A stretch of DNA of 32,000 nt, taken from positions 463,041 to 495,040 of the forward strand of contig OZ246409.1 in assembly GCA_965231035.1 (NCBI GenBank). Reading direction: 5' to 3'. A model generated the notes under the pieces. It searched no databases. It saw only the letters and a program-made list of their open reading frames with translations, and was not told the DNA's origin. Below, one piece after another: positions 17,877-27,209 of this stretch. Within the stretch, counting starts at the first letter, position 1, and every line of letters starts with the position of its first letter. A program made the translations under genes and the position numbers. The DNA is from an uncultured Muribaculaceae bacterium. Lineage in GTDB: Bacteria; Pseudomonadota; Alphaproteobacteria; Rs-D84.

Positions 17877-19649
17877 ATGAATTTGTTTGATTCATCTTTT
17901 TTGTGTCTTGATATTGGCAGCAACACTGTTCGCGGCATTGCACATCGAATACGCTCTGGAAAAATAACCAAATCTGCAATTCACAGTGTCGAAAGCGATG
18001 ATACAGTCTTTGCAATCAAAACTGTTATTGATGAAATGGAACGTCAATTAGGCGTACGTTTTGATTCTGCTTATATAACTGGAAATTTTGGAAACTCTAA
18101 TTTTGAGATGATTGCAAAAAGTACCGTATGGAATGGTGATCATAAAATTACAGAATCAGATGTAAGATATCAAATAAGTCAAATTACCCCAAATGCAGAA
18201 TTTTATCCAATGCACATTGTACCGCTACGTTATGATACTTCGCATGCCAGAAATTTATTAACCCCTATTGGACATACAGACAAACAATTAATTTCTATTT
18301 TTGGGGTAGTAAGTTATGAAAATGAAAGACTGAACACAATATTATCCCAGCTTCGCAGTGCACATATCCAAGTCGAAAATATGTTTGATCCATCTTTTAT
18401 ATTGGATACTGCATTGCGCGATTCAAAACAATCTGTTTTGTTTATGGATATGGGCGCAGAATTCACCAGTATTTCAATCTGGACTGGACGTGGACCGGTA
18501 TTTTTCGAAAAGATTCCCAAGGGTCAGGATTTTATAACAAAAACAATTGCCAGTGAATTAAATATAAAGATAAAAGATGCCGTTAAAATCAAACACCAGG
18601 TTGCCAGCGTAATTGCTAGTGAAATGGACAGATTTACCCCTGCTGATACTTTGTATGATTTTTCGCGTGCTGATTTGAATGAAATAATACTTCCGACATT
18701 ATCAGATATTGTTGAAACAGTCAGCGAATCTTTGGAAACAGCTATTTCAAAATATAACCCTTGTAAAATATTCCTTTCTGGCGGTGGTGCATGTATCCAA
18801 GGAATCGAAGAAATGGTCACAGATACATTTGGAATAGAAACACAAAATATTGGATCAGATGCGGTTATACGTGCACTTTCGGATTATGTTTGGAAACAAG
18901 AATCTGGACATGTAAAAGCTTTCTTGGACCGACATGAAAAATGGCAGAACACTTTTGCAAAGGTATTAAATAAATTCAAAAAGAATAAAAACAAAGGAAC
19001 CAGATTTATTCCAATAATGCCCAGCACATTGGCGTTTGATATGAAAAGCAAAGAAACTTATGAACTTTTCAAATCTGGCGGAATTTCAATGATTCATGTT
19101 GATATTATGGATGGTTTTTTTGTGGATCGTATTGCCGGTGGAATTGAAGAATTGAAAACCATACGTGAAAACACTCACTCTCATCTGCATGTTCATTTGA
19201 TGACGGAAAGCCCTGCTGCTTGGGCGGCTGCGGCTGCAAATGCAGGTGCAGATACAATAATTGTATCAACAAATACTGCGGGTGTTCGTGCTGCACTTCG
19301 TCAAATAAAAGAAATGGGCAAAAGATCTGGAATTGCACTAAATCCGGAAAGTCCTGTTGAAATATTAAAACCAATATTAAAAGAAATTGATGAAGTTTTG
19401 ATAATGTCTGTCAGACCTGGTGCAGGCGGACAAGAATTTAATGAAAATATTCTAAGAAAAATCTCTGTTTTGGCAAACACCAGAAAACGGTTTGGATTAA
19501 AATTCAAAATATCCGTAGACGGTGGAATTACACCTGGTGCAGCTGAATTTTGCTGGCGCGCTGGTGCAGACTTTTTGGTCAGTGGAACATACCTATCTGA
19601 AAGTCATGATTTCCCGTTGGCAGTACAAAGTCTTTTACACAAAGAATAA
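17877..19649 (+). CDS. ftsA: FtsA fused in frame to ribulose-phosphate 3-epimerase (FtsA residues ~1-369, Rpe residues ~376-590)
   Basis: FtsA part has actin-fold motifs LCLDIGSNTVRG, VLFMDMGAEFTSISIW and IFLSGGGACIQGIEEM, and aligns along its length to E. coli FtsA from memory. It ends in an amphipathic KWQNTFAKVLNKFKK helix. Rpe part has IMPSTLAFD, HVDIMDGFFV, HVHLM, MSVRPGAGGQEF and SVDGGI. There is no stop codon between them. Confidence 0.8.
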   Translation: MNLFDSSFLCLDIGSNTVRGIAHRIRSGKITKSAIHSVESDDTVFAIKTVIDEMERQLGVRFDSAYITGNFGNSNFEMIAKSTVWNGDHKITESDVRYQISQITPNAEFYPMHIVPLRYDTSHARNLLTPIGHTDKQLISIFGVVSYENERLNTILSQLRSAHIQVENMFDPSFILDTALRDSKQSVLFMDMGAEFTSISIWTGRGPVFFEKIPKGQDFITKTIASELNIKIKDAVKIKHQVASVIASEMDRFTPADTLYDFSRADLNEIILPTLSDIVETVSESLETAISKYNPCKIFLSGGGACIQGIEEMVTDTFGIETQNIGSDAVIRALSDYVWKQESGHVKAFLDRHEKWQNTFAKVLNKFKKNKNKGTRFIPIMPSTLAFDMKSKETYELFKSGGISMIHVDIMDGFFVDRIAGGIEELKTIRENTHSHLHVHLMTESPAAWAAAAANAGADTIIVSTNTAGVRAALRQIKEMGKRSGIALNPESPVEILKPILKEIDEVLIMSVRPGAGGQEFNENILRKISVLANTRKRFGLKFKISVDGGITPGAAEFCWRAGADFLVSGTYLSESHDFPLAVQSLLHKE

Positions 19650-25024: not shown

Positions 25025-26779
25025 TTAGTTCTTTTTTCTGACTTGGATATGAACCTCGCGCAGTTGTTTTTCTGTAACTTCGCGTGGGGCACCCAACATC
25101 AAATCTTGGCCACGTTGATTAGTTGGGAACAATACAACCTCGCGCAGATTTTCTGCCCCAGACAGCAACATTACCAATCTGTCGATTCCAAATGCACATC
25201 CGCCATGTGGTGGTGCACCATACTGGAACGCAGCATACATTCCGCCAAACTTTTCTTTGACCACATCTTCGCCATATCCTGCAATTGCAAAAGCTTTTAC
25301 CATTGTTTCAGGATTATAGTTGCGAAGACCACCACTGCATATTTCATTTCCATTCAAAACCATATCAAATTGATTTGCTTTGATTGTCAATGGGTCGCCA
25401 TCTAATGAACCCTTGGGCAAGCTGAATGGGTTATGTCCAAAATCAATTGTGCCGGTCTCTTCATTTAATTCGTACATTGGGAAATCTTCGACCCAACATA
25501 ATCTGAATTCCTTTGGATCAATCAGATTCAAATCTTCACCCAACTTGTTACGCAATTTTCCTGCTGCTTTGGCTGCGATTTCAGCTTTGTCACATACAAA
25601 GAACAAAGATGCATTGTCACCTGCAATTTTGCGCAATTTTGCAATACGATCTGCATCTAATTTCTTTGCGACTGGACCTTTGGCCTCTTCTGCAAAAATT
25701 ATATATCCTAATCCGCCAAGTCCCAGCTCTTTGGTTGCAAACTCACCCAGCTTGTCAAACCAAGAACGTGGCTGTGAAGCAGAATTTGGTGCAGGGATTG
25801 CGCGAACAACACTGCCACCTGCAACTGCATCAGCAAAGATTCCAAAATCAGACCCACGGAATATTTCAGTAACATCAGAAATTTCAATCGGGTTACGCAA
25901 ATCTGGTTTATCAGACCCATATTTCAACATTGCAGTATCAAATGGTATATGTGGTATTTCAGAACCGATTTTAGCGTCTGGGGCAAACTTTCTTATCATT
26001 TCAGGTATAATTTCATCACCAACAGCCTGGATATCGCGCAGATCAACAAATGACATTTCCAAATCCAATTGATAAAATTCCAATAATCTGTCTGCACGCA
26101 AATCTTCATCACGGAAACATGGCGCAATCTGAAAATAGCGATCAAATCCAGAAATCTGAATCAACTGTTTGAACTGCTGTGGGGCCTGAGGTAACGCATA
26201 GAACATCCCATGATGATAACGGCTGGGGACGATATAATCGCGTGCACCTTCTGGGCTGCTGACGGTCAAAATAGGCGTTTGGAATTCTGAAAATCCCATA
26301 TCCCACATTTTATCACGCAAGAATTTTATAACACTGTTACGGAACAATATATTTTTATGTAGTGATTCACGACGCAAATCAATATAACGGTATTTCAAAC
26401 GCAAGTCTTCGCTGACACTGCCATCGTCACCAAATACTTGGAAAGGCAAAACATCTGAATTGGTTAAAATTTCCCATGCGCTTGATTGGACTTCAATACT
26501 GCCGGTTGGAATTTTATCATTCACTGCTGATTTTTCGCGGGCTACAACCGTTCCAGTAACCATAATTACAGATTCAGGACGCAATTTTTCCAAATTCGCA
26601 TCGCCACCATTAAATACAATTTGTGTAATTCCATAGTTATCACGCAGGTCAATAAACAACAAAGACCCATGGTCGCGTTTACGATGAACCCAACCTGATA
26701 AAACAACTGTTTCACCAACATTTTTTGTGTTCAGTTCACCACAAGTATGTGTACGATATTTAGATTTTAATGATAGCAT
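25025..26779 (-). CDS. aspS: Aspartate--tRNA ligase
   Basis: 584 aa bacterial-type AspRS. It has an N-terminal OB fold, FYALPQAPQQFKQL (the QSPQLFKQ equivalent) and class II motifs (FRDEDLRADR, GNEICSGGLR, PPHGGCAFGIDR). Confidence 0.95.
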   Translation of the reverse strand: MLSLKSKYRTHTCGELNTKNVGETVVLSGWVHRKRDHGSLLFIDLRDNYGITQIVFNGGDANLEKLRPESVIMVTGTVVAREKSAVNDKIPTGSIEVQSSAWEILTNSDVLPFQVFGDDGSVSEDLRLKYRYIDLRRESLHKNILFRNSVIKFLRDKMWDMGFSEFQTPILTVSSPEGARDYIVPSRYHHGMFYALPQAPQQFKQLIQISGFDRYFQIAPCFRDEDLRADRLLEFYQLDLEMSFVDLRDIQAVGDEIIPEMIRKFAPDAKIGSEIPHIPFDTAMLKYGSDKPDLRNPIEISDVTEIFRGSDFGIFADAVAGGSVVRAIPAPNSASQPRSWFDKLGEFATKELGLGGLGYIIFAEEAKGPVAKKLDADRIAKLRKIAGDNASLFFVCDKAEIAAKAAGKLRNKLGEDLNLIDPKEFRLCWVEDFPMYELNEETGTIDFGHNPFSLPKGSLDGDPLTIKANQFDMVLNGNEICSGGLRNYNPETMVKAFAIAGYGEDVVKEKFGGMYAAFQYGAPPHGGCAFGIDRLVMLLSGAENLREVVLFPTNQRGQDLMLGAPREVTEKQLREVHIQVRKKN

Positions 26780-26925
26780 TTTGACACCCTTTTTTATTCA
26801 TGATTCTGATTTCATATTTATGAAACCACAGGGGCGGTAATCAACCGCGGTGCCACCCTGGCTTGTAACTTTATTTAAGTTTTCTGTTCTGCTCGCCGGT
26901 CGTTAATCGGGTCAACGCTGAACAC
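26780..26925 (-). promoter_or_regulatory. T-box leader (tRNA-sensing riboswitch) of aspS, minimal format
   Basis: Minus strand 26860..26829 reads CAGGG-UGGCACC-GCGG-UUGAUUA-CCGC-CCCUG, the canonical antiterminator. The conserved core AGGGUGGNACCGCG is fully matched, and N=C fits discriminator G73 of tRNA-Asp. Upstream are a hairpin with GAC/GAU codons and a Stem III-like hairpin. The SD AAGGGUG can pair with the antiterminator 3' strand. Confidence 0.75.
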
Positions 26926-26931
26926 ATTTGG

Positions 26932-26959
26932 ATTTTACATCTATTTTTGTTAAATTCAA
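26932..26959 (-). promoter_or_regulatory. Putative sigma70 promoter for the aspS T-box leader
   Basis: Minus strand reads TTGAAT (26959..26954), 16 nt spacer, TAAAAT (26937..26932). The predicted start near 26925 coincides with the base of the first leader helix. Confidence 0.5.
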
Positions 26960-26971
26960 GGGATTATTTAA

Positions 26972-27045
26972 TGGTGCCCGCAGCAAGAATCGGACTTGCG
27001 CCTCGTCCTTACCAAGGACGTGTTCTACCACTATACTATGCGGGC
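26972..27045 (-). tRNA. tRNA-Thr (anticodon GGT)
   Basis: Hand-folded. Acceptor is GCCCGCA/TGCGGGC, anticodon arm CGTCC-TTGGTAA-GGACG, T arm GCAAG-TCCGATT-CTTGC, with an encoded CCA. The T-loop has C rather than U at position 55. Confidence 0.75.
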
Positions 27046-27100: not shown

Positions 27101-27128
27101 AAAAAATAAAACCAGGATAAACCTGGTT
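27101..27128 (-). terminator. Rho-independent terminator after tRNA(CAT)
   Basis: Minus strand reads AACCAGG-uuuau-CCUGGUU followed by UUUAUUUUUU. Confidence 0.65.
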
Positions 27129-27134
27129 AAAATC

Positions 27135-27209
27135 TGGTAGCGGGTGAGGGATTTGAACCCCCGACCAAAGGATTATGATTCCTGTGCTCTACCACTGAGC
27201 TAACCCGCC
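27135..27209 (-). tRNA. tRNA with CAT anticodon (elongator Met or lysidine-type Ile2; cannot be distinguished by eye)
   Basis: Hand-folded. D arm is GCTC-AGTGGTA-GAGC, anticodon loop ATCATAA, variable TGGTC, T arm GGGGG-TTCAAAT-CCCTC, with an encoded CCA. There is a G1:U72 wobble. The variable and T-loop regions resemble E. coli ileX as I recall it. Confidence 0.75.

Follow-up and report, generated by a model that had tools for sequence, protein, structure and literature searches.

The DNA considered here is a stretch of 32,000 nucleotides (the window, positions 463,041 to 495,040 of contig OZ246409.1 in assembly GCA_965231035.1), deposited as an uncultured Muribaculaceae bacterium and placed by its GTDB lineage in the alphaproteobacterial order Rs-D84. 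Its minus strand carries aspS (25025..26779, with the AUG at 26779..26777), the gene of a bacterial-type aspartate--tRNA ligase (AspRS) of 584 amino acids, an assignment borne out by a protein profile search of the window (NF001750, 752 bits; TIGR00459, 590 bits). Upstream on the same strand, at 26959..26932, lies a promoter-like site in which TTGAAT (-35) and TAAAAT (-10) are separated by a 16-nt spacer; with 9 of 12 consensus matches, and as a consensus match is no proof of function, it would place the transcript start at about 26926..26924, the foot of the first stem of a structured leader. A preliminary description of this DNA, made from the letters alone, had proposed that this leader directly 5' of aspS contains the core of a T-box, the family of RNA elements that sense uncharged tRNA. 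The comparisons described below confirm, at the level of sequence, a real T-box-type element that is under selection. We further propose, with a probability of roughly 65%, that the minus-strand leader of aspS, from about 26926 to 26780, acts as a T-box-type riboswitch with a minimal architecture not recorded before and with a translational output through an OFF state in which the T-box bulge pairs with the Shine-Dalgarno (SD) region.

The discriminator core (antiterminator/antisequestrator) occupies 26829..26860 of the minus strand, where 26860..26829 reads CAGGG-UGGCACC-GCGG-UUGAUUA-CCGC-CCCUG, exactly the architecture first described and at the same coordinates, all of which were correct. 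Helix A1 (CAGGG/CCCUG, 26860..26856 with 26833..26829) is followed by the 7-nt T-box bulge UGGCACC (26855..26849) and by helix A2 (GCGGU/ACCGC, 26848..26844 with 26838..26834), which closes a UGAUU loop (26843..26839). The 14-nt T-box consensus AGGGTGGNACCGCG has a single match with 0 mismatches in the window (26859..26846, minus strand), and 100 dinucleotide shuffles gave no match, even at 1 mismatch. The conserved 14-nt T-box sequence AGGGUGGNACCGCG also finds its exact match at 26859..26846, and the agreement of the core at every conserved position therefore stands, against a chance expectation of 0. Among the 33 leaders compared, UGGC is invariant, the N of UGGN being C in 33/33. Bacterial tRNA-Asp and tRNA-Asn carry G73, and UGGC would fit such a tRNA.

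Standard annotation misses the element because its score for the Rfam T-box model, RF00230, falls under the gathering threshold. At these thresholds Rfam release 15 reports four tRNAs only, and no T-box, in the window, while a permissive local search of 301 nt (26700..27000) yields a partial match (23.4 bits, E = 0.002) that covers Stem III and the antiterminator (model positions 162-216 of 219) and leaves positions 1-161 unmatched. The search with RF00230 that had been put forward as a check of the T-box thus ended short of the gathering score of 93 bits. Since this score is the curation cut-off of a full-length class I model and no biological criterion, the partial match, together with the covariation seen in orthologous leaders, would in our judgement outweigh it.

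This covariation was seen within one clade. The nearest AspRS loci in reference genomes (68-85% identity) belong to metagenome-assembled genomes of gut and rumen Alphaproteobacteria, several of them named Candidatus Enterousia, and the next tier (at most 60% identity) comprises Rhodospirillales and similar bacteria; an AddB match of the "alphas" type among the window proteins is in line with the alphaproteobacterial affiliation. Enterousia, of the order Rs-D84, is a gut lineage with genomes below 1 Mbp and without amino-acid biosynthesis (PMC12306168). The leader sequence is identical across three independent assemblies of the window species, and orthologous aspS loci at 68-89% AspRS identity bear the same leader. 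More than 100 AspRS relatives of at least 80% identity are on record. Of the 28 Enterousia-clade loci with upstream sequence (AspRS identity of at least 68%), 27 have the motif GGUGGCACCGCG some 100 nt ahead of aspS, and it occurs in none of 51 more distant alphaproteobacterial aspS loci.

A MAFFT alignment of 28 sensors (alignment A1), with four named helices and 20 pairs, has standard pairs in 95.3% of its cells, compared with 34-55% when the partners are slid by 1-3 columns. Both sides have changed at 13 of the 20 pairs, and none of 500 shuffles matched any of the observed pairing measures. Such two-sided changes affect all 6 pairs of the C-stem and 2 of the 3 pairs of the upper stem described below; helix A1 is 100% paired in the 28 leaders and has compensatory changes at 2 pairs, and for helix A2 the values are 94.6% and 3 pairs. 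Left unaided, RNAalifold recovers the same helices (18 pairs, 11 with a compensatory change). The conservation and covariation of A1 and A2 anticipated for orthologous aspS leaders were hence found, and pairing, covariation and shuffles, taken together at the level of the alignment, rule out chance and non-functional drift. The exact core, the clade conservation and the covariation all speak for a genuine T-box-type element ahead of aspS in an alphaproteobacterium. T-box homology, selection, covariation of four helices, codon register and complementarity statistics are all supported by data.

The 5' part of the leader folds into a minimal Stem I (26885..26924, minus strand), whose parse is common to 27 of 28 leaders: a C-stem, a 3-nt bulge, GA, any nucleotide, a 3-bp helix around a 9-nt loop, any nucleotide, GA, and the second strand of the C-stem. 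In the window, the C-stem UGUUCAGC/GCAGAACA (26924..26917 with 26892..26885) holds one A.A mismatch and leads into a kink-turn (K-turn) formed by the bulge GUU (26916..26914), a tandem G.A (GA 26913..26912 plus GA 26894..26893) and a C.C at 26911/26895. Above it, the 3-bp helix CCG/CGG (26910..26908 with 26898..26896) carries the terminal 9-nt loop AUUAACGAC (26907..26899). The K-turn signature (C-stem, 3-nt bulge, GA...GA) recurs in 27/28 leaders, often with a box-C-like UGAUGA; the call is a sequence pattern, and the kink in three dimensions is a prediction only. An additional basal helix, P0, absent from the window, is found in most relatives (L003-L011, L024); it lies below an internal loop, some 10-20 nt ahead of the K-turn (L005:2829-2836, for instance). 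It reads GGG...CCC, with the variants CAGG...CCUG in L012 and GCGCA...UGCGU in L008. Since the 5' strand of P0, GGGCGC, would pair without mismatch with the antiterminator 3' strand, it could join alternative pairings.

The terminal loop holds the predicted specifier. In the alignment, column 21 holds no base other than G or A, and columns 22 and 23 never depart from A and C, respectively, which sets the register at loop positions 4-6. The 33 leaders have either GAC (Asp, 24 leaders) or AAC (Asn, 9 leaders) as this triplet, and nothing else. The third base is always C, a purine follows in 33/33 leaders and a U precedes in 30/33, while the other flanking loop positions drift. Published rules for T-box specifiers include a purine after the codon and a usual C at the third position (PMC7583486), and the restriction to GAC or AAC, the following purine and the C together make up a T-box specifier signature. 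The window has AAC (26902..26904, minus strand), the Asn codon, complementary to the anticodon GUU, with U 26905 before and the purine G 26901 after it. AAC occurs in at least three separate leader subfamilies: with the loop AUUAACGAC in the window, L028, L201, L205 and L208; with ACCAACAAC or ACUAACAAC in L001, L020 and L023; and with ACUAACAAC in L016, whose nearest leader relatives have GAC. The preliminary description had placed the hairpin at 26924..26885 and listed several triplets, GAC 26913..26911, GAU 26908..26906, AAC 26904..26902 and GAC 26901..26899. All of these are where it put them, and as candidate codons only AAC 26904..26902 stands in register, the GAC at 26913..26911 being the K-turn G.A plus one base, and the GAU also falling away. 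Its idea of a dual AAC-GAC reading finds no support in the register, for the second loop triplet varies freely among relatives (AAC, AAA, AAG, AAU, ACC, GAC).

Between Stem I and the core, the window has a gap of 3 nt (GAA) and then a Stem III hairpin, AACUU-AAAUA-AAGUU (26867..26881, minus strand), which runs through ACAAGC into helix A1; it was expected at this position, it is present in the minimum-free-energy (MFE) fold and it aligns with Stem III of RF00230. Of the Stem III flanks, the 3' AA is present (in ACAAGC) and the 5' RRRxG is not evident. The hairpin is kept with another loop (AACUU-AACA-AAGUU) in L201/L205/L208, and most other relatives lack it but retain AAGUNAUAAAU, with a 25-35-nt A-rich linker free of any conserved hairpin. 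Neither Stem II nor an S-turn nor a IIA/B pseudoknot was found in the window, and no conserved hairpin in the linkers of relatives. The distal platform of Stem I (AG bulge plus distal loop) is also missing, as Stem I ends in its 9-nt loop 3 bp above the K-turn. Without distal platform or Stem II, the leader is indeed far shorter than canonical T-boxes, as had been remarked. In the current structural view, a T-box cannot hold its tRNA without one of two parts, the elbow platform of Stem I or Stem II, and Stem II with its S-turn and IIA/B, present in most of them, has been reported as essential where Stem I is short; the platform is also missing from most translational T-boxes, and glycine T-boxes may drop Stem II, having a strong GGC:GCC pairing and a long Stem I (PMC7583486; for the latter also PMC11297988). 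The lack of both parts is the main structural surprise of the aspS leader.

Downstream of the core, a 9-bp spacer hairpin, H (UGGUUUCAU-AAAU-AUGAAAUCA, 26807..26828, minus strand, in the MFE fold), lacks a following U-tract and does not qualify as a terminator; L028 has a hairpin of different sequence (GGAUUGC...GCAAUCC) in its place. The ribosome-binding region follows at 26782..26791, with the SD AAGGGUG (26791..26785) and, overlapping it, GGUGUCA (26788..26782). The latter, which ends 2 nt before the AUG, is a 7/7 complement of the bulge UGGCACC and has GUCA as its final four bases, similar to a tRNA 3' end (GCCA). A complement as good as this arose in only 2 of 500 shuffles of the downstream region. 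A 7/7 bulge complement lies downstream in 26 of 28 leaders, each reached by 0-7 of 500 shuffles, compared with 3 of 118 ordinary T-boxes taken from the metagenome matches listed. For the window and L028, this complement coincides with the SD-start region. The other leaders have it as an invariant element, x, with the sequence GGUGCC(A/G), at a distance of 41-75 nt from the AUG; the last four bases of x (GCCA or GCCG) equal the 3' end of a G73 tRNA. In the 24 leaders of this relay type, x is paired with the bulge in 99.4% of the alignment cells, and with a further downstream strand, b, in 83%, the variation lying almost wholly on the b side. The chain can be followed in the nearest relatives (89% AspRS identity), where the bulge is GGCACC, x is GGUGCC/GGUGCU, b is GGCGCC/GGCACC and the SD is GGUGUU.

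Which strand covers the SD in the OFF state was approached by constrained folding. The unconstrained MFE of the window leader pairs 26855..26849 with 26788..26782, and in the 157-nt leader the state with bulge and SD start paired reaches -31.8 kcal/mol, compared with -28.9 for the antiterminator (A1 plus A2) and -22.8 for neither. The preliminary description had also placed the SD within an occludable region, which holds, the bulge being its best-supported partner; the sequestrator then envisaged, in which the SD (GGGUG) pairs with CGCCC (26836..26832), does not stand. This state reaches only -18.8 kcal/mol, since helix A2 must open, and its duplex (-8.4 kcal/mol, z = -0.8) is no better than composition-matched shuffles, for which reason it was rejected as a candidate. 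When states were imposed on 32 leaders, those with A1 and A2 formed and the bulge blocked, as if tRNA were bound, and those with the bulge occupied were near-isoenergetic (mean difference +1.2 kcal/mol), the bulge-occupied state being favoured by 5.1 kcal/mol in the window and 5.6 in L028. The modelled pairing of the SD rose from 0.59 to 0.80 in the bulge-occupied state, with a rise of at least 0.15 in 18 leaders and an equal-sized fall in 1. These energy models ignore tertiary contacts and the K-turn, and plain folding of whole leaders gives inconsistent SD accessibility, which becomes interpretable only with explicit state constraints.

The rejected helix is the window's version of a more general alternative, in which the leader would also be a T-box sensor but with a conventional strand swap: the antiterminator 3' strand (GCGCCCC/CCGCCCC) would leave A1 and A2 and pair with a G-rich strand downstream, the SD in the window and x (GGGUGC) in relatives, then freeing b to cover the SD. 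This is the switching mode of known transcriptional and actinobacterial translational T-boxes (PMC7583486, PMC11297988), and in the 24 relay-type leaders 97.2% of the alignment cells allow the 3' strand to pair with x, with a duplex of about -11.5 kcal/mol. For the window, however, the swap would require a helix less stable than the state with neither pairing, and in relatives it leaves two invariant features of x, the C and the purine at its positions 7-8, without explanation, which only the pairing with the bulge provides. Moreover, four leaders with UUGGUGCC/UUGGUGUC lose one pair of the 3' strand and no pair of the bulge. We consider the strand swap unlikely, while regarding it as the foremost competitor of the bulge-to-SD reading.

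Under this preferred reading, the K-turn-based Stem I would present a codon in its terminal 9-nt loop, AAC in the window and GAC in most relatives, to the anticodon of tRNA-Asn or tRNA-Asp, respectively, and UGGC of the bulge would pair with the uncharged 3' end, G73-C-C-A. In the absence of uncharged tRNA, UGGCACC would instead pair with GGUGUCA over the SD and block initiation. Uncharged tRNA would displace this cis complement from the bulge, A1 would form, the SD would become free and more AspRS would be made. In most relatives, the switch would run through a relay, from the bulge complement GGUGCC(A/G) to its partner strand and from there to the SD; with two intermediates, the parity of this relay keeps the T-box logic, in which uncharged tRNA means expression ON. 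We infer that tRNA is bound, which helix forms in the OFF state and that control is exerted on translation, and a translational output appears the most likely one.

A more specific form of this model can be put forward, although we would give it somewhat less than even odds. The tRNA may be held by two short duplexes only, the loop codon and UGGC:GCCA, without elbow docking or Stem II, and the bulge would be occupied by a cis mimic of the tRNA 3' end (GUCA here; GCCA/GCCG in relatives), which uncharged tRNA-Asn or tRNA-Asp would then displace. The specifier would toggle between Asp and Asn across species because the AspRS is non-discriminating; such an enzyme would also charge tRNA-Asn for transamidation, which would make an Asn specifier sensible.

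Several observations weigh against the bulge-to-SD riboswitch. An Asn specifier on aspS makes sense only if the AspRS is non-discriminating, and gatCAB and asnS are absent from the 32-kb window, which is hence uninformative on this matter. AAC:GUU is a weak codon-anticodon pair, and the parts reported as necessary for tRNA affinity, the platform or, with a short Stem I, Stem II, are both absent (PMC7583486). A G.U wobble that closes helix A2 is described as a steric sensor of the aminoacyl group and is a conserved T-box feature, and all 28 leaders have G-C there instead (column pair 97-122); G-C closure is not exclusive to them, as ordinary long-Stem-I, terminator-bearing T-boxes among the metagenome matches listed have it too. 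The score of the window for RF00230 lies far under the gathering score, and none of 19 relatives reached it. The G73 of the host tRNA-Asp and tRNA-Asn is assumed from general knowledge, genes for these tRNAs having been found neither in the window nor in 32 aspS loci nor in 21.7-kb loci of the same species. As to the switch itself, the bulge:SD helix is beyond a covariation test, because the bulge is invariant. The complementarity of x to the antiterminator 3' strand, which the strand swap would use, likewise counts on this side, as does the pairing of the window SD, still 0.61 in the modelled ON state. Finally, the direct bulge-SD format occurs in two species only, those of the window and L028; no further leaders of this format were found among the nearest AspRS relatives, which comprise hybrids (a window-like Stem I with a relay platform) and one lineage devoid of the T-box.

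The substantial SD pairing in the modelled ON state would also suit a T-box sensor whose target is transcription or the stability of the RNA rather than translation initiation, with a terminator (non-canonical or Rho-dependent) or a processing site as its means. Transcriptional control prevails among known T-boxes (PMC7583486), and the relay-type relatives have a run of 5-6 U before strand b. A terminator scan, in agreement with what had been noted before, found no GC-stem with a U-tract between the promoter-like site and the AUG of the window, nor hence between T-box and AUG, whereas a U5 run follows within 60 nt in 84 of the 118 ordinary T-boxes. The U-run of the relatives lies inside the x:b hairpin, at least 13 nt past any GC helix, and the SD-start region of the window and L028 shares bases with the bulge complement, all of which makes such an output very unlikely. 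Most improbable of all is that the element, whether inherited or gained by horizontal transfer, is a T-box remnant which has stopped sensing tRNA and persists as a conserved, structured 5' untranslated region with another role or none: the missing platform and Stem II, the score below the Rfam threshold and the in-clade relatives that live without the element (L026 and L203/L204) would fit it, but selection acts on the exact tRNA-contact bases, with UGGCACC invariant and the triplet GAC or AAC through repeated G/A switches while its neighbours drift, and the helices covary.

Compared with known systems, the aspS element combines features that have been described apart. With the class I T-boxes (RF00230; Bacillus subtilis tyrS and glyQS), it shares the 14-nt sequence, the order of A1, 7-nt bulge and A2, the K-turn of Stem I, the Stem III of the window, a codon that ends in C and precedes a purine, and a site ahead of a gene for an aminoacyl-tRNA synthetase; in the linker, AAGUNAUAAAU-CAGGGUGG, it comes close to identity with the T-boxes of streptococcal glyQ. 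It differs from them in the missing distal Stem I and terminator, a specifier placed in the terminal loop, an A2 closed by G-C, its 23.4 bits against a gathering score of 93, and an alphaproteobacterial host. The translational class II T-boxes of Mycobacterium tuberculosis and M. smegmatis ileS (Sherwood 2015; PMC11297988; PMC7583486) likewise have a short Stem I, no platform and no terminator, and resemble the proposed aspS model in that the OFF state hides the SD and uncharged tRNA exposes it. They need, however, Stem II with its S-turn and a IIA/B pseudoknot, neither of which the aspS element has, and their anti-SD is the antisequestrator 3' strand, whereas the best-supported SD partner in aspS is the bulge. 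Glycine glyQS T-boxes also consist of Stem I, linker, Stem III and antiterminator only, without Stem II, yet with a full-length Stem I that carries the platform and a strong GGC:GCC pairing, in contrast to the truncated Stem I and the AAC/GAC of aspS.

A precedent for tRNA-Asn sensing at aspS is the Asn "NT-box" of Clostridium acetobutylicum, which, as far as it is described in the papers that cite it (Saad 2012, 2013; cited in PMC4206432, PMC4574755), controls an aspS/gatCAB operon and sets an Asn codon over a non-discriminating AspRS pathway. According to the same accounts, it is a canonical, long transcriptional Firmicute T-box with an internal specifier loop and two overlapping codons; the aspS element studied here has its codon in a terminal loop, and species toggle between Asp and Asn codons. 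The only proteobacterial T-boxes in published surveys are those of Geobacter and Pelobacter leuA (PMC2494555), typical elements on a biosynthetic gene in Deltaproteobacteria, whereas the aspS element is atypical, on an aminoacyl-tRNA synthetase gene and in Alphaproteobacteria. The translational model of TBDB was run on Actinobacteria and on truncated-Stem-I sequences that its class I model had already found (PMC7778990). A literature search for T-boxes in Alphaproteobacteria or Pseudomonadota returned no prior report, part of this search being too loose to inform. As judged from its sequence, the aspS leader is thus a T-box family core with a new architecture, the first for Alphaproteobacteria as far as the literature search shows.

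The origin of the element can be approached through its likeness to Firmicute T-boxes. A metagenome scan with the pattern GGGTGGDACCGCG-N4-24-CGCCCC, that is, a discriminator with a non-C UGGN, returned at least 120 loci. A class model, R1, gives the window 76.9 bits (a member by construction) and the best metagenome loci among the matches listed 34-39 bits; these best matches are ordinary Firmicute T-boxes (glyQ, pheS and similar) with a long Stem I and terminators made of a GC-stem and a U-run. No minimal-class siblings of other specificity appeared among the matches listed, which is a weak negative. The linker AAGUAAUAAAUUAGGGUGG of streptococcal glyQ T-boxes almost equals the Enterousia AAGUNAUAAAUCAGGGUGG, a likeness that argues for common descent, and the Enterousia element was possibly acquired from gut Firmicutes. 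In the same collection (L081-L200), Streptococcus-like glyQ T-boxes (for example L101, L102, L117, L171, L173) have A2 closed by G-C, and some of these loci have interrupted or duplicated glyQ starts 3' of the leader.

Within the clade, the element is missing from some loci and varied in others. L026 (74% AspRS identity) has no T-box and an unrelated region upstream of aspS (L026:2780-3010), and in L203/L204 (89% identity; 940-1203), also without T-box, aspS starts 2 nt after a peptidase S51 gene, which implies that the element was lost or bypassed at least twice. The window leader (26777-26942, minus strand) is a mosaic when set against L201:940-1203, L205:940-1203, L208:970-1203 and L028:2830-3003. 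Its promoter sequence, its Stem I with the loop AUUAACGAC and its Stem III are shared with the relatives of 89% AspRS identity (the promoter being kept in L201/L205/L208), and L028, at only 68% AspRS identity, is the one it resembles in the A2 loop, hairpin H and SD segment. This pattern suggests that expression platforms may have been exchanged as modules between lineages.

The surroundings of the leader offer some further observations. Just upstream and on the same strand lie tRNA-Thr GGU (26972-27045) and tRNA-Met CAU (27135-27209), each with a promoter-like site of its own, and a terminator-like hairpin follows tRNA-Met at 27128..27110. In three relatives (L002:2754-2830, L011:2747-2825, L027:2735-2815) the T-box leader starts from a few to about 25 nt past the 3' end of tRNA-Thr (...GGGCACCA), which leaves no room for a promoter; these leaders are therefore probably co-transcribed with tRNA-Thr and freed by processing. 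An out-of-frame upstream open reading frame (ORF) of 13 codons (26763-26801, minus strand; AUG AAU AAA AAA GGG UGU CAA AAU GCU AUC AUU AAA AUC UAA) starts at about 26801, overlaps the aspS start, has no evident SD and is probably incidental. Elsewhere in the window, a 590-amino-acid ORF on the plus strand (17877-19649) joins an FtsA/PilM-like N-terminal part (residues ~27-338) to a C-terminal ribulose-phosphate 3-epimerase domain (380-586), an unusual fusion that is kept in three other assemblies of the species.

The aspS leader extends T-box regulation to the Alphaproteobacteria, and to a gut lineage whose genomes are smaller than 1 Mbp (PMC12306168). As the element falls under the Rfam threshold, similar reduced T-boxes may go unnoticed elsewhere. 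Some 30 natural sequences that lack both platform and Stem II offer a direct test of the minimal needs of tRNA recognition, and a sensor of about 100 nt could be of use for engineering. The conserved complement of the bulge points to a cis mimic of the tRNA 3' end, a switching principle undescribed for T-boxes, and the repeated switches between Asp and Asn codons would amount to a natural experiment in the re-tuning of specificity where two tRNAs share a synthetase.

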